Positions 13,183 through 55,828 of a stretch of 64,000 bases of DNA are shown here, piece after piece (within the stretch, counting starts at the first letter, position 1; the number at the start of each line of letters is the position of its first letter). This stretch comes from a virus. Lineage: Duplodnaviria; Heunggongvirae; Uroviricota; Caudoviricetes. The translations under genes and the position numbers were made by a program. The stretch is from the IMG/VR virus record IMGVR_UViG_3300015207_000448; one strand, given 5' to 3'. The notes under the pieces are model-generated. The model ran no database searches, was not told the origin of the DNA, and saw nothing but the letters and a program-made list of their open reading frames with translations.

Positions 13183-14442
13183 GTGGACAAGATATTAGAA
13201 AAATTCTTCGAGCTTGAACGATGGGAATATGCCATTGACAAAGGCTTGGGAAAAGGAATTTCAAAAGCACAACTCTACCAGCTAACGAAGCCGGAAACAA
13301 GGGTTGCGATGTATGAGGCCATTCGAGATGGTAAGTACGAAATAGCACCACCTCACACTGCCAAAATACCCAAAGATAATGGCGAGTTCAGAACAGTTTA
13401 TATCAATGAACCGGCTGATCGAGTTTTATTGAGTATTGCCAATGATCTTCTGTTTGAATTGATGCCTGAGATGGTTCATCCGCAGTGTCAGTCATACCAG
13501 AAGGGAATTGGTTGTGGTAAGATTGTACAAGAAGTATCTCGAAAAATATGCGACACGAAGGGCGAAGTCATCGGTTGGAAGGCCGACTTTAGCAAGTATT
13601 TTGATAGTGTGCCGGTAAGGTTCATTGATGAAGCCTTTGACAAAGTTGAAGCGAAACATGGACATTCGGCACTGATTGATGTATTGCGAAAGTATTATCA
13701 TTCCGACTATTTCTTCACTCCTGAAGGTGAGCTGATGCAATCGTACCAATCATTGAAGCAAGGGTGCTCCGTCGCATCTTGGCTGGCTGATGTGGCCCTA
13801 TGCCACCTCGATGAACGGCTGTCTCAACTGGATGGCTACTATATTCGCTACTCTGATGATACGCTATTTGTCGGAGCTGATTACGAGAAAGCTATGGTGA
13901 TTATGGAAGATGAATTACATCAGATGGAAATGAAACTCAACCCCAAGAAAGTTGAGTATCTGACTCCTACGAAGTGGTTCAAATTTCTGGGGTTCTCAAT
14001 CAAGGGGGCTGCAATCTCACTCAGTTCAACCCGCATAAAGAAATTCCAAAAAGAGATTGAGAGGTTGACGATCAAAGCAAAGGATATTACGCTCCAAAAG
14101 GCTATCAATTCTGTAAATCGTTTTCTTTATAAAGGCTACGGTGAACATAGTTGGGCCACTCAAATATTACCTATTTGCAATGTCCACTCTGACATCCACG
14201 AATTGAATTGTTTTGTGATGGATTGTCTGAGAGCAGTAAAGACTGGTAAGAAGAAAATAGGCGGTCTTGGTTATGTGGTCACACAGGAGCAAGGCTGTAT
14301 TTCACGAGGCATTGGAAAGAACGTCAAGGCTAACCGTGAGAAAACAGCTAATATGATAAACCGATATTTGACGCTCTCTTGTATGCAAAATGCAATGCGT
14401 ACAAGCCGAGACGCTTATCGGACTTTGGTCGCTTCTCTCTAA
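13183..14442 (+). CDS. Reverse transcriptase RT1, of group II intron-like / DGR-type
   Basis: RT motifs present: PKDNGEFRTVYINEP, WKADFSKYFDSVP, LKQGCSVASWLADVAL, YIRYSDDTLFVG (YxDD), LNPKKVEY, FKFLGFSI; about 100 aa of C-terminal extension beyond the thumb. Confidence 0.85.
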   Translation: MDKILEKFFELERWEYAIDKGLGKGISKAQLYQLTKPETRVAMYEAIRDGKYEIAPPHTAKIPKDNGEFRTVYINEPADRVLLSIANDLLFELMPEMVHPQCQSYQKGIGCGKIVQEVSRKICDTKGEVIGWKADFSKYFDSVPVRFIDEAFDKVEAKHGHSALIDVLRKYYHSDYFFTPEGELMQSYQSLKQGCSVASWLADVALCHLDERLSQLDGYYIRYSDDTLFVGADYEKAMVIMEDELHQMEMKLNPKKVEYLTPTKWFKFLGFSIKGAAISLSSTRIKKFQKEIERLTIKAKDITLQKAINSVNRFLYKGYGEHSWATQILPICNVHSDIHELNCFVMDCLRAVKTGKKKIGGLGYVVTQEQGCISRGIGKNVKANREKTANMINRYLTLSCMQNAMRTSRDAYRTLVASL

Positions 14443-16277: not shown

Positions 16278-17384
16278 ATGGCAAAGAAAAACCCCAACCC
16301 CAGTACAAAAATCGTATGCCCCGTGTGCGGTACAGAGTTTGCAATCCCCGAAAAAACTCACGTTGCTGTCGGTATCGTCGTAGGTGCAGACAGCGGTCTT
16401 GGCACCATCTACCCGGCAACGACAGGAGCCACCCAAACTCCGGCACCCAGTGCTCAATCTCAGAAGAAAGCGACTGAGAAGATTGAGGCTTTGCACATGG
16501 CCGGGGTTAATGTTGACAACCTCTTCAGTATGAAGAGCGCGTCCGGTCAGGAAATCATCGCCCGTATGGAAAACGGAAACCTCTCCGTTGTTCCCGACAA
16601 TGACCCGATTTTCGCAGTTATCATGGGACGTGGTACCGTGCCTAACCGCCGACTCTTCCGTCGCTGGGTGATGGCTCAGGTCTTCCACATGCTCAACTAC
16701 AAGTCCTATCGCGGAAACAAAACAGGTTTCGTTGCTGCACTCGAAGCCAAAGGTTACAAGTATCAGTGGAAGATGGTTCTTGAGGAAATGCGAGTACAGG
16801 CTAAGCTCGCCGCTGAAGACCCTGAGAACTTCGCACTCCGTAACCGCTGGTTCAACGATGGCCGCATCATGCAAATGGGCGTGGACTATCTGGAGCAGCT
16901 TGTGGCTCATATCAACAAGCTGAAGGTTCGTCACTGCAAAGGCGTGCCCTATGTTAAACTGGGCGGCAGAAACGTGTTTACTGCTGACATCCAGACTAAG
17001 GTCATTGACCCTATCGTGAAAGCGATGGCGAAAATAGGTGAGGCTGACACCCCTCAGAAACTTTACTACGCAGTCAATGCTGCTGTAAGATTCATTCAGC
17101 AATGGTGGTTCACCAACGACGCTTGTATGTCTCAGGCTTTCAAAGACGCATACAAGGGAGCTGGTGCATACTTCACTATGCAGAACCTTATTCTCTTCCA
17201 CGGGGCCAGTTTCAAAAATGGCTGCATCAAGCTTGGCCAGAAGAAATCTCTGGCTATGCTTGAGAACAAGGCTCACGAATATGCAACTTCACAGGAAGGC
17301 TGGCGTCTGTTCGGTGTGATGAAGAAACTCATCGCTGATTCTGGTATCAATATCGGAAAGAAGATGGAAGAATGGCGAAAATAA
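16278..17384 (+). CDS. Zn-ribbon-containing hypothetical protein; paralogue of 52182..53270 (minus strand)
   Basis: N-terminal CPVCGTEF; shared blocks AGVNV-NLFS, VVPD-DPIFA, RRLFRRWVMAQVFHM, FKDAYKGAGAYFT--NLILFH. Confidence 0.5.
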   Translation: MAKKNPNPSTKIVCPVCGTEFAIPEKTHVAVGIVVGADSGLGTIYPATTGATQTPAPSAQSQKKATEKIEALHMAGVNVDNLFSMKSASGQEIIARMENGNLSVVPDNDPIFAVIMGRGTVPNRRLFRRWVMAQVFHMLNYKSYRGNKTGFVAALEAKGYKYQWKMVLEEMRVQAKLAAEDPENFALRNRWFNDGRIMQMGVDYLEQLVAHINKLKVRHCKGVPYVKLGGRNVFTADIQTKVIDPIVKAMAKIGEADTPQKLYYAVNAAVRFIQQWWFTNDACMSQAFKDAYKGAGAYFTMQNLILFHGASFKNGCIKLGQKKSLAMLENKAHEYATSQEGWRLFGVMKKLIADSGINIGKKMEEWRK

Positions 17385-19031: not shown

Positions 19032-19823
19032 TTGTTTCAAATGAAAATCAAACGATTCAAGAAATTCAAAAATGGTATTGTTTATGCCCTTGCCCTGGAT
19101 GATGGAAGACTTATCGAAACCACCGATACATTCCTTCCTTTCTACACAAAGGATGCAATCGGGCGTAAGCAGAACAAACTCGACAATTCAAATCTCGGTG
19201 ATCGCACAGAGCGTTGGATGATAGGTGTATCAACTATGAGCGGATGTCCAGTTCATTGCAAGTTTTGCGCAACTGGAAATATGAAAGGTTGGCGCAATCT
19301 TACCGCTGATGAGATTGTCAGTCAAGTCATGTTTGCTATCGAACAGGCGGGTGCAGACCCGAATGAAGCAAAGGAGTTCAAGATTAACTATACTCGTATG
19401 GGCGAGCCTTTCCTTAATATCGAAAACGTCAAGGAGGCTATCCGCAGAATCACGGAGATTTACCCTAACACCCATCACTATGTCTCAACCATAGGTGTCA
19501 AAGACAGCGATTTTTCTTTTGTCAAGGGCAATGTCACACTCCAAATAAGTCTTCATTCGTTTGATGAGGCGCACCGAGACTGGCTGATTCCTTTCAAGAA
19601 GAAAATGAGTATTGAAGAACTCGGTCAGATTCGTACAGAGAGCAATCTCAAAACAACCATCAATCTTACTCTGGTGGAAGAAAGCGACTTTGACGCTGAC
19701 AAGCTACGTCAATACTTCGACCCGCGACACTTCTTTGTCAAGTTGTCTCCAATCAACCCTAACGAGGTTTCTGATGGGAACAATCTTGGCAAAGGTATAA
19801 TCGAGGGTGTAAACCTCGTATAA
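19032..19823 (+). CDS. Radical SAM protein related to RlmN/Cfr, short form
   Basis: MSGCPVHCKFCATG matches the RlmN/Cfr CxxxCxFCATG cluster; 263 aa is shorter than canonical RlmN. Confidence 0.55.
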   Translation: MFQMKIKRFKKFKNGIVYALALDDGRLIETTDTFLPFYTKDAIGRKQNKLDNSNLGDRTERWMIGVSTMSGCPVHCKFCATGNMKGWRNLTADEIVSQVMFAIEQAGADPNEAKEFKINYTRMGEPFLNIENVKEAIRRITEIYPNTHHYVSTIGVKDSDFSFVKGNVTLQISLHSFDEAHRDWLIPFKKKMSIEELGQIRTESNLKTTINLTLVEESDFDADKLRQYFDPRHFFVKLSPINPNEVSDGNNLGKGIIEGVNLV

Positions 19824-22789: not shown

Positions 22790-23284
22790 AGTACACCAAA
22801 GAACAAGTTCGGGCCGCAAAACGTGCAGCAAAGGCATTAAAAGAGCTTGCGGACTCTGGGCTTTATCTAATCTGGCACGCTTCTTCTGGATATATATTGC
22901 TATCCATCTTCAGAAGATGTACCGGATAGAGGGTACGGCGATGATGTACTTGTCTGTGGTCATATTCACGAAGGTGGCGACTGGTAAACTGAAATAAACA
23001 AAAAACAATGGAAGATTTAATTAAAGCACTTCTGATATTTCAGAAATATATCAAGCCGGATGATTTGGCATATAAATATCCAACTGCGTGTGAACACGAT
23101 GAGCTGTATGTCAACGTCAACCCCGACATCGTTTCCATTGAGGATAAGAAAGCCTTGTATGCGTTGGGATTCTTTCCGAGCGAATATAGCGGAGACGAAG
23201 ATTACTACACACCGCCAACTGAGCCAGAAATGGAGGGCGACTGTTTCTTGTCATACAAATTTGGAAGTTGAACGAATTGAAGCA

Positions 23285-23677
23285 ATGAAAGCAAAAGTAA
23301 GAGCGACTGGAGAAATCGTGGATGTTTACAATGCACCGCATCACCCAGATGTTTGGTATGGAGCAAGCCTTCTCCCTTATGGCACACGTGAGCTGGAGTT
23401 CATCGCTTATTCTCGATCCTTAACCGATGGTTTGTTGGCTCAATTCTCTGATCAAGAACTTCGTGAAGAGCTGAAGAATCGTGTTGATCTCCGTAAAGCA
23501 GCCCATATTTTCCTCCGTTGTCGTGATTGTAAGCACTGTGGTGAGGGGTGCTGTCATAAGAGTAGCCGTTACAAGACCTCAGTGTGCTTCCTGAAACCCA
23601 AACCACAAGTCGGTCCTGACCGCTATTATGCGACTCTCCTTTCGAGGAAGGCATGTGAAAATTTTGAACCGAAATAA
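23285..23677 (+). CDS. Cys-rich hypothetical protein; paralogue of 38846..39244 (minus strand)
   Basis: Start at the internal Met of ORF 23060..23677; shared KATGEIVDV-N-P--PD-WYGA, RDCK-C-EG, KPKP--G--RYYAT-LS-K-CE-FEPK. Confidence 0.45.
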   Translation: MKAKVRATGEIVDVYNAPHHPDVWYGASLLPYGTRELEFIAYSRSLTDGLLAQFSDQELREELKNRVDLRKAAHIFLRCRDCKHCGEGCCHKSSRYKTSVCFLKPKPQVGPDRYYATLLSRKACENFEPK

Positions 23678-25456: not shown

Positions 25457-25966
25457 TTGGGCGGCTTAGTAAAACCCAAACTGAACAAGATGAAACAATA
25501 CATCGGAACAAAGTTGGTGTCTGCCACGCCAGCGATTCGCAAAGGTGGCAAAGTTTATTCCCCGACAGATGAAATTCCTAAATCAATGGAGCCGGTCGAG
25601 GAGGGCTACAAAGTAATCTACGAGGGCGGTTATGAGAGCTGGAGTCCAAAAGACGTGTTTGAGAAGGCATATCGCCCTTGTGATGGCATGAACTTCGGAC
25701 TCGCCATTGAAGCTCTTAAACAGGGCAAGTGTGTCACTCGCAAAGGGTGGAATGGCAAAGGAATGTTCCTATGGCTCAAGCCCGGTGCAAACGTCAAAGC
25801 TGAGTGGTGCAAAGACCCCAAACTCTACGACCTCGCAATGCAGAACGGAGGCGAAATTGAAGCGCTCGGCACAATCTGTATGTTTACCGCTCAGAAACAA
25901 ATTCTCAGCGGTTGGCTCGCATCTCAGACAGACATGCTTGCTGAAGACTGGATGATTCTTGAGTGA
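25457..25966 (+). CDS. DUF2829-family protein (Tad2-like sponge candidate) with an N-terminal extension
   Basis: FGLAIEALKQGKCVTRKGWNGKGMFLWL ... WLASQTDMLAEDWMILE matches my recollection of the DUF2829 hallmarks. Confidence 0.5.
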   Translation: MGGLVKPKLNKMKQYIGTKLVSATPAIRKGGKVYSPTDEIPKSMEPVEEGYKVIYEGGYESWSPKDVFEKAYRPCDGMNFGLAIEALKQGKCVTRKGWNGKGMFLWLKPGANVKAEWCKDPKLYDLAMQNGGEIEALGTICMFTAQKQILSGWLASQTDMLAEDWMILE

Positions 25967-26667: not shown

Positions 26668-26919
26668 TTCGATATGAGACAATCGAACTTCAAGACAAAC
26701 GACAAGGTTATAATCGTGAGCAACGGTCTTCAACCTCAGTATCAAGGGAAGACCGGGAAAATCAAGAAAGTTTACCCCTCCTTCAGCGAGAACGATGCGG
26801 AAGAACACGAGTTCTTCTATCGCGTTGAAGTTGACGGCACTGTTCTAAAAGGAATTGCTCGTGATTCCGATTTGAAGCCGCAATAAAAGACTCAAATCAA
26901 AAGTAAATCTTGTTGACTG

Positions 26920-26965
26920 GACGAGAACCGGGAGCCTCCTAAACCTTCTGGTTCTCGTCTTTTTA
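26920..26965 (+). terminator. Rho-independent terminator, followed by a candidate promoter
   Basis: gacgagaacc ... ggttctcgtc ttttt; then ttgcaaagttagcaaatatttaattga. Confidence 0.55.
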
Positions 26966-27027
26966 TATTTGCAAAGTTAGCAAATATTTAATTGATAATC
27001 AAATAAATCATATAAAAAGAAACAACA

Positions 27028-27210
27028 ATGGCAAGAACTGCAAACAAGAAAGCACCTGGGAAATCAACACGTCCCACAGACTACGAACCTCAGCCTGGTC
27101 ACAAGGCAACTCTCAGCCTCGCTGATTTTACTGACAACGACTTATTCGCAGAGCTCCGGCGCCGTGGTTACAATGGTGAGCTTCGTTCACTTAAAGTTGT
27201 GACGGTATGA
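27028..27210 (+). CDS. Small basic protein with a C-terminal LFAELRRRGYNGELR motif; paralogue of 50226..50408 (minus strand)
   Basis: The 43 C-terminal residues are about 80% identical between the arms, far above the 40-50% seen for other paralogue pairs. Confidence 0.5.
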   Translation: MARTANKKAPGKSTRPTDYEPQPGHKATLSLADFTDNDLFAELRRRGYNGELRSLKVVTV

Positions 27211-27446
27211 GAAATTTCAACCCTAAGGCACTTTGCAACAAGTGTCAAATCAAGAAAGCCTCAGGTCTTCACTCTTGTCCTTTCGAGCAGAAACACATGT
27301 GTCCTGACTATCAGGCTTATGTCGCAGATAATGCGTTACAGTTTGAGGACTCTGCGCTCCAAATTCCAGTAGAGTCGTTGCTGACCGCATTGAGATTTCA
27401 CGGTTACTCTGGTGAGCTTCGCAAATCAGAGATCGTAGTAATCTAA
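27207..27446 (+). CDS. Small Cys-rich protein ending in GYSGELRK; paralogue of 49966..50229 (minus strand)
   Basis: CNKC ... CPF ... C cysteines; C-terminal GY-GELR motif shared with the upstream gene. Confidence 0.45.
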   Translation: MRNFNPKALCNKCQIKKASGLHSCPFEQKHMCPDYQAYVADNALQFEDSALQIPVESLLTALRFHGYSGELRKSEIVVI

Positions 27447-27519
27447 TAGTAGAATATTCAGTTGAATACATAGAATCTCCCTAATTTTTATTAACTTTGC
27501 AGCAGCTTTATTGCTAAGG

Positions 27520-27700
27520 ACATATTAGAAAAAGTGCCTCACACCTTGTGAAATCGCCAAAATAATCACGTAAGCACGAGGCACGGTGACAGCTCATATA
27601 TCGTGGGCTGCCTAACCGTGCGTGTTTACAGGTGTTTGGCGATACCTACAAGGAAAGCATGGGAGGGCAGTCCACTTTTCTTGTGCCTATGCTGCGAAAC
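27520..27700 (+). other. Candidate structured 5' leader RNA upstream of the membrane-protein genes
   Basis: Long-range pairing ccttgtgaaatcgccaaa / tttggcgatacctacaagg enclosing cacgaggcacggt / accgtgcgtg. Confidence 0.25.
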
Positions 27701-31478: not shown

Positions 31479-31563
31479 GGGTTAATGACGGAATTGGTAG
31501 ACGTGTCGGTCTCAAACACCGATGTTGAAAGACGTCCGGGTTCGACTCCCGGTTAGCCCACCA
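31479..31563 (+). tRNA. tRNA-Leu (CAA), type II with a long variable arm and an encoded CCA
   Basis: Acceptor gggttaa/ttagccc, anticodon loop ctCAAac, T-arm ccggg-ttcgact-cccgg. Confidence 0.7.
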
Positions 31564-31595
31564 AGAGAACATTTACATTTTAATCACCAAACATT

Positions 31596-32420
31596 ATGAA
31601 ACATTTCATTAAACTGTTTCTCGCACTGATTGTGTGCGTTGCAGTCTCCAGCTGTCATGGTGTCCGGCCTGAAGCTGACGAGGAAGCTGTGTTAATCAAA
31701 AAGCCGTGGTTCTTTGGGCATGGCGGTGTTGACTTGGAGCCGGTAAATACTGGCCTCACATGGTGCTTCTGGAGCACATCCTCAGAGTCGTTCAAGATTA
31801 CTCCTGTGCGTTATGAGGAAACCCTCGATGACATCATCTCTAACGAAAACACTCCGCTCGACTTCAAGACGCAGATTATCCTGCGCATTAAGAAAGGTAA
31901 GAGTCCGGTGCTTTTGCAGAACTACGGAGTCAACTGGTATGAGAACAACGTCAAAGAAGTTTACAACAACCTTACTCGACATTATGTCTCCCAGTATTCG
32001 CCATTTGATTTGACCAGTAACCGAGAAGTTGTCGCTCATATTGATTCTTGTGTGAAAGCCGACATGATCCGTTACATTGACCGACTATCTGTGGAGAAAG
32101 AATTTCCCATTGTTGTCGAGAATGTCATTACCGGTCGAGCGATTCCTAATGCAGCGCAGCTGAAGGAGATGAACAACACTGCGGCTCAGATTCAGGCAAA
32201 GCAAACTCAGGAGCGACGATACGAAACGGAGGTTGCACGAGAGCAGGCTGAACGACAACGCGCAGTATCAGATAAAGCCTATCAGCGAGAAATGGGTCTG
32301 ACTGCGGAACAGTTCATCAGTTTGAAAGCATGGGACGTAATCAACTCTAAGCAGGGTGCAAACATTGATGTCCTCTTCGATGGAGGCGCTTCCAGTACCA
32401 TGTGGAATATCAAGCGATGA
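31596..32420 (+). CDS. SPFH/band-7-like lipoprotein
   Basis: Signal peptide plus lipobox (VSSC); central beta-rich domain; C-terminal Ala/Gln/Arg-rich coiled coil. Confidence 0.45.
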   Translation: MKHFIKLFLALIVCVAVSSCHGVRPEADEEAVLIKKPWFFGHGGVDLEPVNTGLTWCFWSTSSESFKITPVRYEETLDDIISNENTPLDFKTQIILRIKKGKSPVLLQNYGVNWYENNVKEVYNNLTRHYVSQYSPFDLTSNREVVAHIDSCVKADMIRYIDRLSVEKEFPIVVENVITGRAIPNAAQLKEMNNTAAQIQAKQTQERRYETEVAREQAERQRAVSDKAYQREMGLTAEQFISLKAWDVINSKQGANIDVLFDGGASSTMWNIKR

Positions 32421-32496
32421 CAGTAATCCGCAATTAGAGATCACTATTAAACAAGAAACCGCAAAGAAGCAATATCCTTTGAGCCTTTGCGGATTT

Positions 32497-32569
32497 GGGG
32501 CCATAGCTCAGTTGGTAGAGCATCTGCTTTGCAAGCAGAAAGTCCGCAGTTCGAGTCTGCGTGGTTCCA
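32497..32569 (+). tRNA. tRNA-Ala (TGC)
   Basis: ggggcca acceptor with a G3-U70 pair, D-arm tagctcagttggtagagc, anticodon loop ttTGCaa, T-arm cgcag-ttcgagt-ctgcg. Confidence 0.75.
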
Positions 32570-32644
32570 CGAAAGGGTGGTGGGAGTTCGAGTCTCCCTG
32601 GAGTTCGCAAGGACTGCATAGTTTAGCGGTAGAACACCCTTTAT
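32570..32644 (+). other. tRNA-like fragments: an isolated T-arm (gggagttcgagtctccc) and an acceptor/D-arm-like segment (gcatagtttagcggtagaaca)
   Basis: No complete cloverleaf can be formed; flanked by intact tRNAs. Confidence 0.3.
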
Positions 32645-32718
32645 GGACTTGTAGCTCAGTTGGTCAGAGCAGCGGCCTCATAAGCCGATGGCCTCAGGTT
32701 CGATTCCTGACTTGTCCA
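32645..32718 (+). tRNA. tRNA-Met/Ile2 (CAT), with an imperfect acceptor stem
   Basis: D-arm tagctcagttggtcagagc, anticodon loop ctCATaa, T-arm tcagg-ttcgatt-cctga; two mismatches in the acceptor stem. Confidence 0.45.
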
Positions 32719-32720
32719 CA

Positions 32721-32791
32721 CATCCTTTGGCCGAGTGGTTAGGCGGCGGTCTGCAAAACCGTACACGCCGGTTCGAGTCCGGCATGGATGT
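32721..32791 (+). tRNA. tRNA-Cys (GCA) candidate
   Basis: D-arm gccgagtggttaggc, anticodon arm gcggt-ctGCAaa-accgt, T-arm gccgg-ttcgagt-ccggc; unusual C1 and one acceptor mismatch. Confidence 0.45.
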
Positions 32792-32796
32792 CTATT

Positions 32797-32869
32797 GGCT
32801 TCGCAGCTCAGTTGGTAGAGCGGTACGCTGTTAACGTAATGGTCGCAGGTTCGAGTCCTGCCGGAGCCG
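32797..32869 (+). tRNA. tRNA-Asn (GTT)
   Basis: Acceptor ggcttcg/cggagcc, D-arm gctcagttggtagagc, anticodon loop ctGTTaa, T-arm gcagg-ttcgagt-cctgc. Confidence 0.7.
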
Positions 32870-32885
32870 CAAATTGATATAGAAT

Positions 32886-33422
32886 ATGAGGAAAAGAACA
32901 GCATACATACGACAATACATTCAAGACCACCTTGACAAGACCAATGCAGAATTGGCTGATGATTTGCAAATGGAGAAGGGCTCGGTTCGGTATCACATCA
33001 GAGCATTAAAATTGCAAGGAGTGCGAAAGACATTGGGTTATTATCCACGTACCCCACATGATGAGTATATCAGAGAGCATTACCCCAACAAGTCTGCTTC
33101 TCTTATCGCTAAAGAAGTCGGAATGACCCCTGGCGGTGTACGATGCGCTGCTTACAGGTTAGGCATTAAACATAACCCAGGCTATGCAAGAGTGCAATGT
33201 AGTCATCGCCAAATTGGAGAAAATTTAACAGGTCAGCGTTTTGGGTATTTGGTAGTCAAGAGGCAATTAGGAACAAACAAGTATGGGCAAATGAGATATG
33301 AATGTTTATGTGATTGCGGAAAGATGACCGAATCGACAGCTGGGAATCTAAAACATGGACATAAAAAGTCTTGTGGCTGCTATCGTAGGCAACTGGCCGG
33401 GTTCAAGCGTAAGAAGCGCTAA
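32886..33422 (+). CDS. Protein with an N-terminal HTH and a C-terminal Cys-rich zinc module (homing-endonuclease-like); the domain is shared with 43821..44468 (minus strand)
   Basis: LTGQRFGYLVVKRQLG ... YECLCDCGK ... GHKKSCGC against LTGQRFNRLVAQKRDP ... WICQCDCGK ... GHTGSCGC. Confidence 0.45.
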   Translation: MRKRTAYIRQYIQDHLDKTNAELADDLQMEKGSVRYHIRALKLQGVRKTLGYYPRTPHDEYIREHYPNKSASLIAKEVGMTPGGVRCAAYRLGIKHNPGYARVQCSHRQIGENLTGQRFGYLVVKRQLGTNKYGQMRYECLCDCGKMTESTAGNLKHGHKKSCGCYRRQLAGFKRKKR

Positions 33423-33431
33423 ATAATATAC

Positions 33432-33503
33432 TGAGGCGTAGTTCAGTGGTAGAACAGTGGATTTTGGTTCCACGGGTCGTCGGTTCGAGCCCGACCGCCT
33501 CCG
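33432..33503 (+). tRNA. tRNA-Gln (TTG)
   Basis: D-arm tagttcagtggtagaac, anticodon arm gtgga-ttTTGgt-tccac, T-arm gtcgg-ttcgagc-ccgac. Confidence 0.7.
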
Positions 33504-33630
33504 CAACAATTTACTTTTTCCAAGAAGTGTTTAGATTTGAGAGCGGCGTGCGTGAGCATTATCCGCTCTTTTTTCATCAATCATAAAACTTCTGGTCAAT
33601 AAAATCTCTATTCGTAATAAAAGACAGATT

Positions 33631-33885
33631 ATGACACGATATTTCAAATGGCTTACTGAAAGCAACCGTCCCAAGCATATCCTAGTCGGCTTCCTGATAG
33701 GGCTCGCATTTGGCATTACTGGTGCCTTTGTGGCAGCCACTACAGCCGAAGTTAAAGATTGGCTGTGGAATGGTCAGAAAGGCGGTATCTTCGGCTGGAT
33801 CAAAGGTAATGGTTTTGACTGGCTTGACTTTGCTGCAACAATGATTGGTGGTGCCATCGGATTTGGCATACAGTGTATATTCTAA
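33631..33885 (+). CDS. Small membrane protein with a glycine-zipper motif, possibly holin-like
   Basis: ILVGFLIGLAFGITGAFVAA and IGGAIGFGIQ. Confidence 0.35.
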   Translation: MTRYFKWLTESNRPKHILVGFLIGLAFGITGAFVAATTAEVKDWLWNGQKGGIFGWIKGNGFDWLDFAATMIGGAIGFGIQCIF

Positions 33886-34300
33886 CATCATTATGGAAGC
33901 AAATAATAAAAAAGACATTCCGACCATAATTGAATGGCTGGGAGACGATAGAGGCGATAATCTTGCTATCAGATTCGGGCTCCGTGTATATACCGTTGAC
34001 CGATATGGAAATCTCAACTCCCAGCGTTATAAGCGGGCTTTGGCAAGTCCGTTGCCAGAAGGAACATATACAGCTCCAATTGAGGGTTTATCTGACCTCA
34101 AACCAGGCCATACGTTTGTTATCTCCAACACTGAGATAGTAGTAGGCAAGCTGATCGAATCTCATCTGTTTGGTTATCGCTTCTTATGTGTAACCCCTGA
34201 AGGAAAGATTGTGATTACAGATGTGAGTTATGAAGACATTATACGCCATCATAAAGATGGTGACATCAAGGCAATTTTTAAGGTAAGAATCGAAGATTGA
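33845..34300 (+). CDS. Hypothetical protein
   Basis: ORF track. Confidence 0.35.
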   Translation: MVVPSDLAYSVYSNIIMEANNKKDIPTIIEWLGDDRGDNLAIRFGLRVYTVDRYGNLNSQRYKRALASPLPEGTYTAPIEGLSDLKPGHTFVISNTEIVVGKLIESHLFGYRFLCVTPEGKIVITDVSYEDIIRHHKDGDIKAIFKVRIED

Positions 34301-34338
34301 TTTTTAGGTTTAGGCATTTCTTTTTTCATTGTTGTTTT

Positions 34339-34367
34339 TCCTCCCGTTGTGAAACGGGAGGTTTTTA
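34339..34367 (+). terminator. Rho-independent terminator
   Basis: cctcccgtt-gtgaaa-cgggagg followed by tttttat. Confidence 0.55.
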
Positions 34368-34848
34368 TTTAGATATGTTGAGTATTGTAGGTTATATGTG
34401 TACACATAAACGTGTTAAGATGAAAATAATCAGAAGATAGGTATAAAGAATTGACCTGATTGGCATTGACTCAATTTTGTCAATTCCAATTATTGTTCTA
34501 TCTTTGCAACAGCAAATGAGAGCCGTTTGCCAAGTGAGTGTGCTAAAAGTGTGCGTTCACTACCCAAGACAAGTCTAAAACTGTACTATATATCAATCAG
34601 TTAGATTGTCAGAGTTTGTGGTGGCCTGGTGGCACCACGAGATTGATGAAACTCAGTTTACACTGTACACTAAGTGTTTACTGAGTTTCTCTTTTTATAG
34701 CTGATTATCTTAGAGTTAGCCCACTCTAAGTTCTGTCAATACCCTGTACACTTTGGGGTATTTTTGCAGTGTAGTGGCTTGGGTCAGTCAATGATGTGCA
34801 TATTTTGTGACAGACAATGCGCCAACATTAACTGATTAAAGCAACGTA

Positions 34849-36111
34849 ATGATTACAATCAACTATCAGATGTTCGGGACCAAAGGGTTCCAACTAAGAT
34901 TGAGGCTCTATCAGGATGGCGAGACAAAGTTTATCAACGTCACCAAAATGCTGAAAGGAGCCATCCAAAAGAAACACTGGAATCAGAAGAAGCAGCTCTT
35001 TATCCCAAGCTGCCCCTTCAGTGATGAGAACAATGCCATGCTGGTTCAGTTCCGGCAGAGGTACGATGAAATGGCAATCAACTGGACTGGCAGCGTGTTT
35101 GGTATGATAGCTGCTATGGAAACGGCCACAGAACCCTCTCAAAAGGCCCTGACGGTCTCAGAATTTATCCAGTATGTAGTTGACCAGCTCAACAAAAACA
35201 AGCACGCAGACGGCTCTGGAAAGGGCAGTTTTGAGAACTACCTGAAATGTGACAAAAGACTTCAGGAGTTCTGCAAGGCAAAAAAGATTAAATACTCAAA
35301 ACTGTTGATTACGGAGCTTAATGCAACTTTCGTGAATAACGTGTTTGAATGGGTCGAGCGCGCGCGTAAAGGCACAGGAATGTGCTATGTCTCAAAGATA
35401 CTCCATTCTTTGATTATGAAAGCTGATAAGGAGGGGTATCTGAAAGCTGAGGATTTCAAGAAATGCAACTGGTTCAAGAAACCAAGCTCCAGCTCCCAGA
35501 AGTTCCACACACTGACTGAAGAGCAATGTAAGAAGTTTACCACTCTGGATTTGTCATCAATCTCCAAGTCACCTCTGAATGAGCTGTACCGGGATTTCTG
35601 CCTCTTCATTCTCTACACCGGCCAGTCTGCTTGTGACGCGATCGCTCTCCGATATTCGGACATCAAGAAAATAGGCGGGATCAGTCACTTTGTGTTCAAC
35701 CGAAGAAAGATTGCTGAGAAGCAGGCGGTGCCTTGCTCTGTTCCAATCAATACAGAGCTTGACCGTATAATGCTCCGTTGGAGAAGGTTGGCAAAGGATG
35801 GGTACATTTTCCCCATCCGAAATAAGGAGAAGTTAAAAACTCAGACCACCAATAATGGGGATATAAAACACTTTATAGGGAATTTGAACAACTGGCTCAA
35901 AAAAGTCGGCAAGGCGCTGGGTTGTTCGTTTCCGCTGCATACCTACACTTTCAGGCACACAGCGATAACACATTATATCAGTAAGGGAGTGCCGGTCATA
36001 TATGTGTCGAATATGATGGGCACCAGTATAGAGAACTGTGAGAAGATCTACTACAACAATCAAGGTGATACTGCCAGCCGTAACAAAGTATTGGCAGCTA
36101 TGAAGTTCTAA
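34849..36111 (+). CDS. int: Tyrosine site-specific recombinase (integrase)
   Basis: C-terminal catalytic box HTYTFRHTAITHYISKGVPVIYVSNMMGTS; 420 aa; preceded by about 550 bp of noncoding DNA carrying the palindrome gtggtggcctggtggcaccac. Confidence 0.8.
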   Translation: MITINYQMFGTKGFQLRLRLYQDGETKFINVTKMLKGAIQKKHWNQKKQLFIPSCPFSDENNAMLVQFRQRYDEMAINWTGSVFGMIAAMETATEPSQKALTVSEFIQYVVDQLNKNKHADGSGKGSFENYLKCDKRLQEFCKAKKIKYSKLLITELNATFVNNVFEWVERARKGTGMCYVSKILHSLIMKADKEGYLKAEDFKKCNWFKKPSSSSQKFHTLTEEQCKKFTTLDLSSISKSPLNELYRDFCLFILYTGQSACDAIALRYSDIKKIGGISHFVFNRRKIAEKQAVPCSVPINTELDRIMLRWRRLAKDGYIFPIRNKEKLKTQTTNNGDIKHFIGNLNNWLKKVGKALGCSFPLHTYTFRHTAITHYISKGVPVIYVSNMMGTSIENCEKIYYNNQGDTASRNKVLAAMKF

Positions 36112-36150
36112 AAAAGATTAGGGGCAGCTACTGATTGACTGCCCCTATTC

Positions 36151-36567
36151 TTACTTTTCTGGTCTCACAAACTTAAAGTCAATTTTATATACCTGACAGT
36201 GTTTGCGGAATATCTTGAAGATTTTATCAAACTCACGTTTAATAGCTCGACGCTCACGCCTTGGTGTTCCAGGGGCGTGATACTCTTCAATCAAGTCGTT
36301 CAGCTCATCAGTAAGCCGACAAGCGGTTTTATATCCTGGGCTATCAAAGAGCAAATCCTTTGCTACCTCATTCATTAGAGATACGTTGACACTACATTCA
36401 AATTTATATGAATGATGAATGTCTATCGGATGAGTATCTTTGTCAGTCCAAGATATTTCAACAGTACCGGGGAGAATTTCAAGTTCCTCCCCAGTATTCA
36501 TATCTCTGAGAAAAACCTTACTCGTTTCCATTGTTAAGAAATTCCTCATCAGTGGGAACCTCGTCAA
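36151..36567 (-). CDS. Hypothetical protein
   Basis: ORF track. Confidence 0.3.
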   Translation of the reverse strand: MTRFPLMRNFLTMETSKVFLRDMNTGEELEILPGTVEISWTDKDTHPIDIHHSYKFECSVNVSLMNEVAKDLLFDSPGYKTACRLTDELNDLIEEYHAPGTPRRERRAIKREFDKIFKIFRKHCQVYKIDFKFVRPEK

Positions 36568-36778
36568 GAGTCCAGTATGAGAGTATGTAACAGACTCCGT
36601 TTCCCATATTTCCTAACTCAGCTTCAAGAATTACCGTCTGGCCTTTGGCAATCTTTTCTTTCAAAGGTTCTACACAATACTTCAGGAAAGTCTGATTTTC
36701 TTTACCAATAGGCCAATCCTTATCGAGTTTTGTGAGTACCTTATCGAGCATTGCGGGATTTGTCAGGCGGATTTTCAT
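36518..36778 (-). CDS. Small hypothetical protein
   Basis: ORF track. Confidence 0.3.
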   Translation of the reverse strand: MKIRLTNPAMLDKVLTKLDKDWPIGKENQTFLKYCVEPLKEKIAKGQTVILEAELGNMGNGVCYILSYWTLDEVPTDEEFLNNGNE

Positions 36779-37224
36779 TCGGGTTCGGAGATAACAACCC
36801 AGTCCTCAGCAAACACATCACTGATGGTTGGGGTCCATGAATTTGCTTCTCCAGTGTCTTTATTGTAGATTAGACACTGGTCTGTGTAGTCCACGAATGT
36901 TGCGTGTTCCATCACAAATTTCTTGGCTGCATCAGGAAGAGATTGCATCTTTGGAATGATCTCACCAGTGATATGAGCTGGAACTTGCTTGAACACTACC
37001 AGACTGAGACAATCCCAGCCACGTCTGCGAACCACCAGTCCTCGTTTCAGAGCTTTGATGGCATCGCCGAAGTCCATAACTTCAAGCTGTAACCAAGCGT
37101 TGTCATGGCCATAATCCACGGCAAACATGATCTGTTCTTCACTTTCTTTGTAGGTAGGATTGGCTTTTACAGCTTCCTGTGCAAAAGCCTTTGAAACTCC
37201 TACGATTGAATCAAACTTTTTCAT
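36775..37224 (-). CDS. DUF2829-family protein (Tad2-like candidate); paralogue of 25457..25966
   Basis: FGDAIKALKRGLVVRRRGWD ... SDVFAEDWVVI. Confidence 0.45.
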   Translation of the reverse strand: MKKFDSIVGVSKAFAQEAVKANPTYKESEEQIMFAVDYGHDNAWLQLEVMDFGDAIKALKRGLVVRRRGWDCLSLVVFKQVPAHITGEIIPKMQSLPDAAKKFVMEHATFVDYTDQCLIYNKDTGEANSWTPTISDVFAEDWVVISEPE

Positions 37225-38845: not shown

Positions 38846-39244
38846 TCATTTTGGTTCAAATTTTTCACAAATCTTACAAGATAAGGAGGTTGCATAATAG
38901 CGTTCAGACCCCATTTTGGGTTTAGGTTTAGCAAAACAAACCGTTGTAGTCCATAAATGGTGTTTGAAAGTACGACCTTCTCTGCAATACTTACAATCAC
39001 GACAATGGAGATTACTGGGATATTGAGATTGACGCTCTTTATCTCTACGTTTTAACTCATCTTTTAATTCCTGATCGGTAAAATGAGTTAAAAAATCTAA
39101 GCGATGACATTTATTTTTTGAAGTTGAAATAAATTCAAGTTCCGACGTTCCATAAGGTAAGCCAGCCCCATACCAAATATCTGGATAAAATGGTGAATTA
39201 TGAACGTCAACAATTTCACCAGTCGCTTTAACCTTTGCAATCAT
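38846..39244 (-). CDS. Cys-rich hypothetical protein; paralogue of 23285..23677
   Basis: See 23285..23677. Confidence 0.45.
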   Translation of the reverse strand: MIAKVKATGEIVDVHNSPFYPDIWYGAGLPYGTSELEFISTSKNKCHRLDFLTHFTDQELKDELKRRDKERQSQYPSNLHCRDCKYCREGRTFKHHLWTTTVCFAKPKPKMGSERYYATSLSCKICEKFEPK

Positions 39245-42713: not shown

Positions 42714-43529
42714 TCATTTTTCTTCCTCCTTAAAACCTAATAAGTTACGGGCCACCACAATTTTGATATTGTCCGACTTCAGGAACTTCTTTCCTAAAGC
42801 ACACTGACAACACGGTTTAGCCTCCCTGAGATTGTTGAATATGTCAAGCATATAGTCATCATTGACATTTCCGAATGAGGGGCATAGGCAGGATTCTGAA
42901 AGATGCACATTGCCTTTGTAGTCAATACAAGGCTTACACACCACTCCCGGTGTATGATCCAAGCCAGTGAGTTTTCTGGTGGGGCTGGTTTGCTTGAAAA
43001 GTAAGTGCCCATTCAGACAAGACATATAGTGAGGATTGTCCGCTATTTCTTTCTGAGCCTGCTCATTTGTTTTGGCTCTACCCAAGTCCTGCATACTTCT
43101 GATTTCATCAGTAGTAAGAATAATCTTTGGTATGGCACTGAGTTCTTTGCTGTGCTCAATGATGAATGAGGCGTCTTTATACCACTTTGAATTAGTATAA
43201 ACTTGCATACCTACATAAGATTGGAGCTTTGCAAGTTTTATCATTTCTTCAGTGCGCTCCGGGAACCAAGTGCCATTTGAGGTCACTGTAAAGCCTCCAG
43301 GAGTCTTACTTTGTTTAACAAAGCGGTCGAGATACTGACAGAACTCGGTGAATTTAGGATGCTCTGTCGGCTCTCCACCAGTAATGATGTAGGCACTGGC
43401 ACCTAAGAATTGTCCGAATCTCAGGGCATTTTTGAAGGTGGTTTCGCTCATGTGTTCCCCATTGGGATTGGAGCAGTGCATACAATGAGCGCATCCTTCA
43501 TGGCATTTATTCGTTATCTGGATCAGCAT
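42714..43529 (-). CDS. Radical SAM protein with a C-terminal Cys-rich auxiliary (SPASM/twitch-like) region
   Basis: N-terminal CHEGCAHC (CxxxCxxC); C-terminal CKPC ... C-C ... CCQC cluster. Confidence 0.55.
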   Translation of the reverse strand: MLIQITNKCHEGCAHCMHCSNPNGEHMSETTFKNALRFGQFLGASAYIITGGEPTEHPKFTEFCQYLDRFVKQSKTPGGFTVTSNGTWFPERTEEMIKLAKLQSYVGMQVYTNSKWYKDASFIIEHSKELSAIPKIILTTDEIRSMQDLGRAKTNEQAQKEIADNPHYMSCLNGHLLFKQTSPTRKLTGLDHTPGVVCKPCIDYKGNVHLSESCLCPSFGNVNDDYMLDIFNNLREAKPCCQCALGKKFLKSDNIKIVVARNLLGFKEEEK

Positions 43530-49564: not shown

Positions 49565-49969
49565 TTATGCTTCATAGACCCATTCTGTTACTTCACAGGA
49601 ATCAGGGTTAATATAGCACAAGAGATCGGCGATATACTCTCCAGATGGTTCGGATGAATAGAGAGCAACTTTGTCAATCATACCGGCATCAGCTTCATCA
49701 TACCATTTGATATAGAAACAGACACCAACATAATCTCCTTCGGTTTCCATGTGGCTTCTGTCAAGTTCGACCTCACACGTTATAATAGTAAAGTCATCCT
49801 CATATTCCACATCACGGTCATAGTTTTTTATTCTTTCCCAAAGCTCATCAAAGTTTTTGGACTCCGATATAGCTTTCTGAATTGGCTCTTTAGCTTTATC
49901 ATAAGCTCGCCGATTAAAGTTCGCATTGAACAGAGTTTGCTGCTCAGGGGTTAGATTACTCTTTTTCAT
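49565..49969 (-). CDS. Hypothetical acidic protein
   Basis: ORF track. Confidence 0.3.
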   Translation of the reverse strand: MKKSNLTPEQQTLFNANFNRRAYDKAKEPIQKAISESKNFDELWERIKNYDRDVEYEDDFTIITCEVELDRSHMETEGDYVGVCFYIKWYDEADAGMIDKVALYSSEPSGEYIADLLCYINPDSCEVTEWVYEA

Positions 49970-50229
49970 ATCATTACAACCTTAGTTTGTCTCAGCTCTC
50001 CAGTAAACTTGTGAGCCTGAAGTCCTTTGACGATAGCATTAATGGGAATACCTTGCAAATCCCAAGAGGAATAGTTGTTGAGGACCATCTCTGTTATTAT
50101 GAGATTGCAATCCGTACACTCCAATTTATTAGAGAACGGGCACTCACCCTTCTCCTTTTTCAACTCGCAAGTCTTACAGAGTCGGGTGAGTTTTGCCTGT
50201 ATCTTCTTGTTGGTGGCTTGATTTTTCAT
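49966..50229 (-). CDS. Small Cys-rich protein ending in FTGELRQ; paralogue of 27207..27446
   Basis: CKTC ... CPF ... CTDC. Confidence 0.45.
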   Translation of the reverse strand: MKNQATNKKIQAKLTRLCKTCELKKEKGECPFSNKLECTDCNLIITEMVLNNYSSWDLQGIPINAIVKGLQAHKFTGELRQTKVVMI

Positions 50230-50408
50230 ACCGTTATCACTCTGGAGTAGCGGAGTTCGCCATTATAACCACGCCGTCTAAGTTCGGCAAAAAGGTTCTC
50301 ATCAGTGAAATCCGCAAGAGTGAGAGTAGCCTTATTGCCGGGTTGAGGATTATAGTCGGCAGGGCGTTTTTCGTTAGTGTCTTTGACACTGCTTTTCTTT
50401 CCAGCCAT
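50226..50408 (-). CDS. Small basic protein with LFAELRRRGYNGELR; paralogue of 27028..27210
   Basis: Start at MAGKKSS inside ORF 50226..50459. Confidence 0.5.
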   Translation of the reverse strand: MAGKKSSVKDTNEKRPADYNPQPGNKATLTLADFTDENLFAELRRRGYNGELRYSRVITV

Positions 50409-54553: not shown

Positions 54554-55828
54554 TTATCCGTACTGATGAAGAGAGGAAACCAGCGTTCTGTAAACATCCT
54601 TACTGGTCAAGAGTGCATTTTGCATACACCCTATCGTAAAAAAGCCGGAGAACATCTTGTCTGTCTTTATACGGTTAGCTTTCACATTCCGTCCTATGCC
54701 TCGCTGTATGCAGCCATCGGATTGATTGGCAATATATCCCAGTCCTCCGATTTTAGTCTTGCCAGTCACGACAGCCCTCAAACAATCCATCACAAAGAGT
54801 GTGAGAGTTTGAATGTCTTTCTTCACGTTGATGACCGGCAACACCTGAGTGGCCCAGCTATACTCACCATTTCCGCAATAGAGATAATGATTTATATCAT
54901 TCGTGGCTTTGATGAGGCTTTTCTTTTTGGCTTTGATAGTGCGGGATTCAATCTCTTTCTGGAAGGCTTTTATTCGGGTTGAGCTGAGAGAAATGGAGGC
55001 TCCTTTGATTGAAAACCCAAGGAATTTGAACCACCGAGTATGAGTAAGAAACTCTATCTTTTTGGGATTGAGTTTCATTTCTCGCTTCGTGACCTCTTCA
55101 GTCATTATCTCCATTGCTTTCATATAGTCCGGCCCGACAAATAAGGCATCATCAGAATATCGGACATACTCGCCATTCAGTTGGCTCAGTCTTTCATCCA
55201 GGGTAAACATTACTACATTTGCCAACCAAGAAGCGACCGAACAGCCTTGTTTGAGTGACTGATAGGCTTTCTGGAGTTTGCCGTCAGTATCAAAATACCA
55301 GTCCGAATGATAATACTTTCGGAGAACATCTATGATAGCGGAATGGCCGTGTTTTGCCTCGACTTTATCAAAGGCTTCGTCAATAAATCTGATAGGTACA
55401 GAATCGAAATACTTACTGAAATCAGACTTCCACCCAATCACTTCGCCCTTGGTTTGGCAAATTCTCTTGGAGATCTCTTTCACAATCTTGCCACAACCGA
55501 TACCTTTCTGATAAGATTGACAAGTGGGATGAATCATCTCAGGCATCAGCTCAAATAAAAGGTCATTAGCGATACTGAGAAATATGCGGTCAATCGGCTC
55601 ATTGACATAGACTGTCCGGAACTCTCCGTTATCCTTGGGGATAAGAGCCGTGTGGGGCGGTGCTATCTCATATCGGCCGTCTCGTATAGCAGCGTACATA
55701 GCAGCTCTGGTATCAGGTTTTGTAAGCTGATAGAGATGAGCCTTATTGATGTGCTTCCCGACACCTTTTTCAATGGCATATCGCCATCTCTCAGTATCGA
55801 AAAACATTTCTAATATCTTATCATTCAT
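54554..55828 (-). CDS. Reverse transcriptase RT2; paralogue of RT1 (about 75% aa identity by eye)
   Basis: Same motif set, including YVRYSDDALFVG and FKFLGFSI. Confidence 0.85.
   Translation of the reverse strand: MNDKILEMFFDTERWRYAIEKGVGKHINKAHLYQLTKPDTRAAMYAAIRDGRYEIAPPHTALIPKDNGEFRTVYVNEPIDRIFLSIANDLLFELMPEMIHPTCQSYQKGIGCGKIVKEISKRICQTKGEVIGWKSDFSKYFDSVPIRFIDEAFDKVEAKHGHSAIIDVLRKYYHSDWYFDTDGKLQKAYQSLKQGCSVASWLANVVMFTLDERLSQLNGEYVRYSDDALFVGPDYMKAMEIMTEEVTKREMKLNPKKIEFLTHTRWFKFLGFSIKGASISLSSTRIKAFQKEIESRTIKAKKKSLIKATNDINHYLYCGNGEYSWATQVLPVINVKKDIQTLTLFVMDCLRAVVTGKTKIGGLGYIANQSDGCIQRGIGRNVKANRIKTDKMFSGFFTIGCMQNALLTSKDVYRTLVSSLHQYG

Follow-up and report, generated by a model that had tools for sequence, protein, structure and literature searches.

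Two small, overlapping genes in a 64,000-nucleotide stretch of phage DNA (IMG/VR virus record IMGVR_UViG_3300015207_000448, Caudoviricetes; the window) encode proteins that end in homologous copies of a single domain, for which none of the libraries we searched has an entry. The genes, which we term A and B, lie on the plus strand at 27028-27446. A, a basic protein of 60 amino acids (aa), ends in ...RRRGYNGELRSLKVVTV, and B, a protein of 79 aa with four cysteines, ends in ...RFHGYSGELRKSEIVVI. An earlier reading of the letters alone (the original prediction) had placed both genes exactly, describing a basic protein of about 60 aa followed by a Cys-rich one of about 80 aa. It had also reported the pair in both arms of the window, and a second copy, A' and B', was indeed located on the minus strand by a six-frame motif scan and a listing of the open reading frames (ORFs). 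The main features of the two pairs are listed here.

27028-27210, plus strand: gene A, ORF; 60 aa, basic, isoelectric point (pI) 9.9
27070-27111, plus strand: A-specific conserved arm, residues 15-28 (TRPTDYEPQPGHKA), from the family alignment
27112-27207, plus strand: module copy in A, residues 29-60 (LSLADFTDNDLFAELRRRGYNGELRSLKVVTV), from the profile-profile alignment of A 29-60 with B 48-79
27207-27210, plus strand: ATGA, overlap of the A stop and the B start, read in the sequence
27207-27446, plus strand: gene B, ORF; 79 aa, four Cys; N-terminal four-Cys site, linker helix and C-terminal module
27234-27302, plus strand: putative zinc site of B, C10-x2-C13-x10-C24-x7-C32 (CNKC...CPF..K..CPDY), from B-family alignments
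27348-27443, plus strand: module copy in B, residues 48-79 (DSALQIPVESLLTALRFHGYSGELRKSEIVVI), from the profile-profile alignment with A
49966-50229, minus strand: gene B', orthologue in a second phage; 87 aa, five Cys; overlaps A' by ATGA
50226-50408, minus strand: gene A', orthologue in a second phage; 60 aa, MAGKKSS...GYNGELRYSRVITV

A and B end in copies of one domain

Comparison of a profile built only from A sequences with one built only from B sequences aligned the two C-termini over 32 columns (A 29-60 with B 48-79) with 97.2% probability and an E value of 4.6e-11. Among the 1,448 six-frame ORFs of the window, the A-only profile ranked B third (E 7.7e-4), and the B-only profile matched both A (E 1.2e-5) and A' (E 2.7e-5). 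The common C-terminal motif is thus a true homologous domain, which we refer to as the module, and neither a low-complexity feature nor a chance likeness. The shared motif of the original prediction stands insofar as the ends of A and B are homologous, but its form, GY(S/T)GELR-K, does not extend to B', which ends in KFTGELRQTKVVMI and is still scored by the module hidden Markov model at E 5e-17. The window holds only four copies of the module by the same model.

The module follows a simple plan, with a helix ending in R-x-G-Y, then G-E-L-R and then a short hydrophobic stretch that closes the protein. In A, an amphipathic helix ends in RRRGY and is followed by GELR and a 7-residue hydrophobic C-terminal stretch; upstream lie a variable, basic N-terminal tail (residues 1-14) and an arm of the form RPxxYxPQxGxKA (residues 15-28). 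Over 35 distinct A-B pairs, both module copies keep L-x3-G-Y-x-G-E-L-R and a terminal V or I, and the A copy additionally fixes LADF, D, F, E and the RRR patch. Mean pairwise identity over these pairs is 75% for the A copy, 45% for the B copy and 70% for the A arm, in which R15, Q22, G24 and K26 are invariant and P16, Y19 and A27 at least 90% conserved in the family alignment. Across 24 distinct pairs, the pI of A is 9.2-10 in all but one and that of B 7.7-9.5. In a B-family alignment, two of the four cysteines of B (C24 and C32) never vary and the other two (C10 and C13) are at least 90% conserved; a second alignment gives a similar picture. This pattern of four conserved metal-ligand residues in two pairs agrees with the general description of a C4 zinc ribbon or zinc finger, and we infer from it that the site probably binds metal.

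When a 35-column module profile was searched against 1.84 billion representative proteins, 142 matches were obtained at E up to 1e-3. The module lies 0-4 residues from the C-terminus in all 100 matches that reach the profile end and is exactly terminal in 77 of them. More than half of these 100 proteins carry one to four CxxC ribbons upstream of the module, which also terminates proteins of 150-365 aa. In long proteins matched in several stretches (e.g., P0130), the similarity is to the helix part alone, in repeats, and such proteins were not counted as members. No significant match for A, B or the module was found in the curated families of Pfam-A, PHROGs v4, NCBIfam 20 and PADLOC 2, where the best scores short of significance were to phrog_13346 for A (E 0.027) and to phrog_36123 for B' (E 0.093). 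Sequence searches of the PDB with the A, B and module profiles gave chance matches only, such as PPR repeats. Within the window, a further pair of orthologues that are 57% identical (23060-23677, plus strand, and 38846-39244, minus strand) have an internal F(T/S)DQEL(R/K)(E/D)ELK that looks like the first half of the module. Neither was scored significantly by the module profile (E 3 and 25).

Conservation, coupling and genomic context of the pair

All-against-all comparison of plus- and minus-strand ORFs revealed two collinear, inverted gene sets in the window, at roughly 6-33 kb and 63-39 kb, with protein identities of 24-74%. These two arms are not halves of a single element but two related temperate Bacteroidales phages that abut tail to tail, and A/A' and B/B' are therefore orthologues. 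A protein identical to A is found in 403 indexed assembly blocks, on contigs of 100-112 kb that share the gene order of the plus arm. The tyrosine integrase encoded at 34849-36111 is that of the minus-arm phage, and in independent assemblies it is found at a prophage boundary beside Bacteroidaceae chromosomal genes. At the junction in the window (31479-36600), this integrase abuts the plus-arm phage just past a cluster of six tRNAs (31479-33504); the junction could have arisen because one phage integrated into or beside the other, as tandem prophages or by chimeric assembly. Both phages also encode a reverse transcriptase (RVT_1, E 9e-21; 13183-14442, plus strand, and 54554-55828, minus strand).

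Among deposited phages, the nearest relative is Bacteroides phage BS-TP1 (111.7 kb; host B. salyersiae BG8), in which the A-B pair is gp100/gp101. BS-TP1 has been described as an isolated, temperate phage that carries a diversity-generating retroelement (PMC12694917). A literature search on these genes turned up only that isolation paper, which does not discuss A or B (PMC12694917). The B orthologue gp101 (XPO95234.1; locus L001, 6180-6416) was deposited under the name 'type VI secretion protein' with no supporting note, and none of the searches made here backs that name.

Between the two arms, A and A' are 69.5% identical by BLASTP and 74% (42/57) in a global alignment, and it is only the 46-aa core that reaches 78% (36/46), so that the figure of about 80% originally given for the first gene is too high. 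The 40-50% given for its neighbors is likewise an overestimate, as the immediate neighbors are 24-40% identical between arms; B and B' are 34% identical. A ranks second of 23 arm-to-arm protein pairs, after the reverse transcriptase (74% over 377 aa), and high identities are also seen for a gene of the RNase H-like kind (64%) and for one further gene (60%). In 30 related loci, which were retrieved with A as the query, the median identity is 63% for A (30/30), 44% for B and 78% for a KOW-like neighbor in the 11 loci that keep it. The description of the pair as exceptionally conserved is therefore overstated: A is under strong constraint, but the reverse transcriptase outranks A and the KOW-like neighbor has a higher median identity.

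This constraint acts on the protein. The proportion of synonymous differences in A between the arms (pS) is 0.87-0.90, that is, saturated, while the corresponding nonsynonymous value (pN) is 0.19 for the whole gene and 0.14 for the core. Saturated synonymous sites and a low pN indicate purifying selection at the protein level and not gene conversion or a nucleotide-level element. Recent gene conversion, the check on the conservation that had been named beforehand, or an overlapping nucleotide-level element has practically no chance of being the explanation: it is refuted by the saturated pS, the nucleotide identity of the A core is only 93/138, the arms are different phages and the same protein conservation recurs across about 100 clusters.

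A database search recovered 101 clusters in the A family, 54-82 aa in length, none of which has a Pfam domain or an informative name. Residues 15-60 are near-invariant across these roughly 100 clusters (TRPxxYxPQ(P/Q)GNKA(T/I)L(S/T)LADF(T/S)DEN(L/I)FAELRRRGYNGELRYSKVxxV), and the first 14 or so residues are variable and basic. A profile search for the B family gave 28 clusters. Both A and B are under purifying selection, and the module is far more constrained in A than in B.

The two genes overlap by ATGA in 45/45 related loci, made up of 28/28 IMG/VR and phage loci with downstream DNA and 17/17 loci from Bacteroidales genomes, an arrangement that indicates translational coupling of A and B. 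The ORF that starts from the ATGA is of the B type in all 28 IMG/VR and phage loci, with 75-117 aa, 4-6 Cys and the module at its end. The genome loci come from Muribaculaceae, Prevotella/Segatella, Palleniella, Bacteroides, Porphyromonadaceae, Tannerellaceae and Heminiphilus. One of the 17 has a B cut short near a contig end and the other 16 a complete one, which makes B full in 44/45 loci overall. The A-B pair is an obligate unit, always adjacent in A-bearing loci. Three features precede A in the window:

26919-26964, plus strand: terminator-like hairpin (16-bp stem, 26919-26960) with U-run; fold -25.7 kcal/mol, z -4.76
26964-26971, plus strand: putative Bacteroidetes-type -7 box, TATATTTG; sequence reading, AT-rich region
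26965-26987, plus strand: palindrome ATATTTGCAAA-G-TTAGCAAATAT with 11-nt arms, 91% complementary, overlapping the -7 box; inverted-repeat search

The hairpin and T-run upstream of A are kept only in the subgroup formed by the plus arm of the window, BS-TP1 and loci L009-L018. In this subgroup the hairpin would end the upstream unit, so that A-B begins a new transcript. The -7 box was called with the consensus TAnnTTTG. The palindrome may conceivably serve as an operator, or it may simply result from the promoter consensus; similar AT-rich palindromes are present at the corresponding place in BS-TP1 and L010. In other phages, including that of the minus arm, A directly follows the preceding gene and the flanking genes differ. 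As the pair stays intact while flanks and promoter context differ, A-B appears to move as a cassette.

An essential interaction of the pair, as originally suggested, is not supported. With an independent gene as marker (16278-17384), only 10/80 loci of the wider lineage had a module gene inside 10 kb, a test limited by the short 10-kb flanks and the variable flanking genes, with the window's own phage having A about 10.4 kb from the marker. One metagenomic protein of 81 aa (P0133) resembles the marker protein in its N-terminal half (...FTAALRRKGYKYQW...DPENF) and continues with an A module (FTDENLFAELRRRGYNGELRYSRVITV); this apparent chimera is probably a deletion or an assembly join at a short shared motif.

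Directly downstream of B, a gap of 272 nt that folds to -83.7 kcal/mol (z -4.8) contains a candidate for a novel, conserved and structured non-coding RNA of about 170 nt (27519-27687, plus strand), with a TAACTTTG box at 27492-27499. At the nucleotide level, some 210 nt share 79-80% identity with BS-TP1 and L010-L018, more than the flanking proteins do. The consensus structure, a rod-like hairpin, has 59 pairs, eight of which stay paired through changes on both sides, and its shape may recall 6S-like RNAs by analogy. The candidate is present in single copy per genome and is confined to the phage subgroup with this gap, being absent from the minus arm; it gave no match in Rfam at E up to 1.

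Module relatives and comparison with known systems

The ribbons upstream of the module match phrog_1035 endonuclease VII (E 1e-21), HNH endonuclease PHROGs and phrog_5558 (range 1e-21 to 9e-18), and the 'Lar-like restriction alleviation' PHROG is also matched by module-bearing zinc-ribbon proteins. P0156 and P0215, for example, have the module joined to ribbons of the endonuclease VII/HNH and 'Lar-like' kinds (phrog_1035, phrog_2255, phrog_5558). Unlike the endonucleases, however, the module relatives have no nuclease domain and carry the 32-aa module in its place, and the Cys motif of B itself gives no match to phrog_1035, phrog_2255 or phrog_5558. The A arm is joined to zinc ribbons in P0134, P0159, P0210 and P0214, and in L044 a zinc ribbon, an A-type arm and the module form one polypeptide. 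The Rosetta-stone idea that a zinc-ribbon-A fusion replaces B is ruled out by P0134, after which a separate B is still present. More distant phages carry a single module gene. In one clade (L019, 3186-3536; L020-L022, L025, L027-L032), B is 116-117 aa long and has two tandem modules, the first of which is degenerate (...AHEYVGEPVHYSCVDYV), with A still upstream.

Small zinc-finger regulators are familiar in phages and include the late activators P2 Ogr and P4 Delta, Mu Com and TraR/DksA-like C4 proteins. Like these, B is phage-encoded, small (75-117 aa) and basic with four conserved Cys, and by analogy it plausibly binds nucleic acid or the transcription machinery. The Cys spacing of Ogr, CxxC-x22-C-x4-C, differs from that of B, CxxC-x8-10-C-x6-7-C, and B is set apart from all of these regulators by its co-encoded partner with a homologous C-terminus and its extra C-terminal module. 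Ogr_Delta and zf-dskA_traR went unmatched, and B and B' had no Pfam match of any kind at E up to 10.

The first half of the module (L-x-D-F-T-D-x-x-L-x-x-E-L-R-x-R-G-Y) looks like helix 1 and the glycine turn of SAP, LEM and HeH, which are helix-extended-helix DNA-binding motifs. The Pfam similarities are weak: A matches LEM at E 0.18 (11.9 bits, where the cut-off is 24), P0182 matches LEM at E 2.5e-4, and the E value for SAP is 6e-3. LEM and SAP were each found in only 2/80 module proteins, all below the cut-off, with none in B, A' or B'. Moreover, 10 residues follow the second glycine of the module, too few for a second helix, and AlphaFold2 (AF2), at low confidence, predicts none. Membership of the SAP/LEM group was rejected, as the Pfam scores lie below the gathering cut-off. 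Run with family alignments, AF2 gave low-confidence models of both proteins. That of A (predicted local distance difference test score, pLDDT, 64) has one helix at 36-45 and the module tail as coil. That of B (pLDDT 69) has four helices, including 55-64, with residues 65-79 as coil. A Foldseek search of the B model against the PDB and BFVD returned nothing below E = 0.9.

Possible roles of A-B in Bacteroidales phages

The reading that we favor, tentatively and at somewhat less than an even chance, is that A and B form a small, basic, zinc-containing, nucleic-acid-binding hetero-oligomer, translationally coupled, of temperate Bacteroidales phages. Coupled translation would make A and B together in a fixed ratio, and their module copies, neither of which folds confidently alone, would pair with each other. 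In favor of this reading stand the homology of the two C-termini, the ATGA coupling, the integrity of the cassette amid changing flanks, the purifying selection, the basic character of both proteins, the four conserved Cys of B, the terminal position of the module with ribbons upstream in more than half of the full matches, the L044 polypeptide and the faint LEM/SAP-like similarity of the module helix. The AF2 monomers, partly ordered and with the module tail as coil, are as expected of a domain that folds on pairing. Pairing would unite the zinc knuckle of B, the RPxxYxPQxGxKA arm and RRR patch of A and two basic N-terminal tails in contact with DNA or RNA, and the likely role would be that of a regulator or architectural factor on phage or host nucleic acid. 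Of the 'nucleic-acid-binding or toxin-antidote-like pair' originally suggested, the first half is in keeping with the basic A and B, the four-Cys B and the link between module and zinc ribbons; the toxin-antidote half has found no positive evidence.

Several points weigh against a hetero-oligomer of this kind. The A-B contact and the binding of nucleic acid are both inferred; the AF2 monomers are of low confidence, the Foldseek search came back empty-handed and the LEM/SAP matches, in 2/80 module proteins, are sub-threshold. Many phages have one module protein, and pairing there would have to be homotypic. The P0134 fusion keeps a separate B, indicating that the A fusion and B are not simply interchangeable, and the clade with two modules in B and one in A, three in total, fits poorly with a simple 1:1 dimer. 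Finally, the cassette was unseen within 10 kb of the marker in 70/80 loci, which fits an accessory role better than that of a core regulator.

In the main alternative, which we consider unlikely on balance but worth serious attention, the module does not pair A with B but is a docking tag by which each of them, like the many other module-bearing phage proteins, would attach to a common third partner, such as a conserved host machine or a phage hub, and A-B would be an accessory cassette for host takeover or anti-defense. The position of the module at or within four residues of the C-terminus, whatever the upstream part, and its attachment to unrelated N-terminal regions are what a tag would show. 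The near-invariance of the A core across phages of Muribaculaceae, Prevotella/Segatella, Bacteroides and Tannerellaceae would be expected for a conserved host target, and the cassette moves between contexts and is distributed patchily in the wider lineage. The plus-arm pair lies about 1 kb downstream of a Tad2-like (anti-Thoeris; PF11195) gene (25457-25966, plus strand, E 1.5e-23), but in the minus arm the Tad2-like gene (36775-37224, minus strand; the two are 24% identical) is 13 kb from the pair. Related zinc-ribbon proteins match the 'Lar-like restriction alleviation' PHROG, a label that has no Pfam backing for the same protein. Further, PADLOC finds nothing, and one complex would be the simpler explanation for the strict coupling of two module proteins. 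A broader proposal, which we rate as rather doubtful, is that the module is a previously unrecognized portable 'plug' of Bacteroidales phages that joins diverse zinc-ribbon and helix-turn-helix (HTH) nucleic-acid binders to each other or to one conserved hub (host machine or phage factor). A-B would then be its minimal split form, with the A arm and RRR patch contacting a highly conserved host target.

It is improbable that A and B are virion- or genome-associated internal proteins and the module a packaging or capsid-targeting signal. The C-terminal location of the module in every full-length match would suit such a signal, and small basic proteins would suit condensing or accompanying DNA. 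However, the pair's neighbors are non-structural (ParA-like, RtcB, RNase H-like and an HTH regulator) rather than head genes, and other module proteins are also found among small early-type genes. A weak match to a terminase-small-subunit PHROG (E 7e-4) was not backed by genomic context, and that lead was dropped.

A toxin-antitoxin-like addiction or abortive-infection cassette is quite improbable as well. The architecture is that of type II systems, with two adjacent small genes that overlap by 4 nt in all 45 loci, and the pair is a self-contained cassette that moves between genomic contexts, is patchy in the wider lineage and has, in one subgroup, its own putative promoter and an upstream terminator. 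In type II terms, however, A and B are anomalous, as both are basic, and they share a homologous C-terminal domain, which is unusual for toxin-antitoxin partners. No toxin or antitoxin family was matched in Pfam, NCBIfam, PHROGs, PADLOC or the PDB, the 60-aa A has no predicted globular fold and single-gene relatives exist.

Still further from likelihood is the notion that A and B are precursors of ribosomally synthesized and post-translationally modified peptides, with the shared C-terminus serving as the recognition sequence of a radical-S-adenosylmethionine (radical-SAM) maturase. B is Cys-rich, module proteins stand directly beside radical-SAM genes in LoVEphage and L157, and a radical-SAM gene lies 3-8 kb away in both window arms and in BS-TP1. 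Yet these genes are of differing subfamilies (RlmN/Cfr-like, MoaA/SPASM-like and PA0069-like) and are never adjacent to A-B in A-B phages, and the plus-arm and L157 proteins, the sole pair compared directly, have no significant similarity. A has a near-invariant 46-aa core within its 60 residues and not a variable one, and the module also closes proteins of up to 365 aa; with no adjacent one-family maturase and no variable core peptide, the lead was rejected. The radical-SAM genes of the window are at 19032-19823 (plus strand; RlmN/Cfr-like, 81 bits against a cut-off of 290) and 42714-43529 (minus strand; MoaA/SPASM-like).

Judged by sequence, what appears new here is the uncatalogued domain and the split-pair architecture; the class of small phage zinc-ribbon proteins is familiar. 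The carriers of the pair are temperate phages of gut Bacteroidales and form a common group; 403 assembly blocks contain the exact A protein, and one relative, BS-TP1, has been isolated (PMC12694917). A domain with no Pfam, PHROGs, NCBIfam or PDB entry forms the C-terminal end of at least 100 representative protein clusters, in most cases following DNA-binding zinc ribbons. At present, A-B is well-characterized phage 'dark matter' that is worth an experiment and is not yet a surprise to the specialist. To our knowledge, little is known of regulation and host takeover in Bacteroidales phages. If the module is indeed a pairing or docking device, it would make sense of an entire class of small phage proteins that lack annotation and would provide a handle on regulation or host takeover in these phages.

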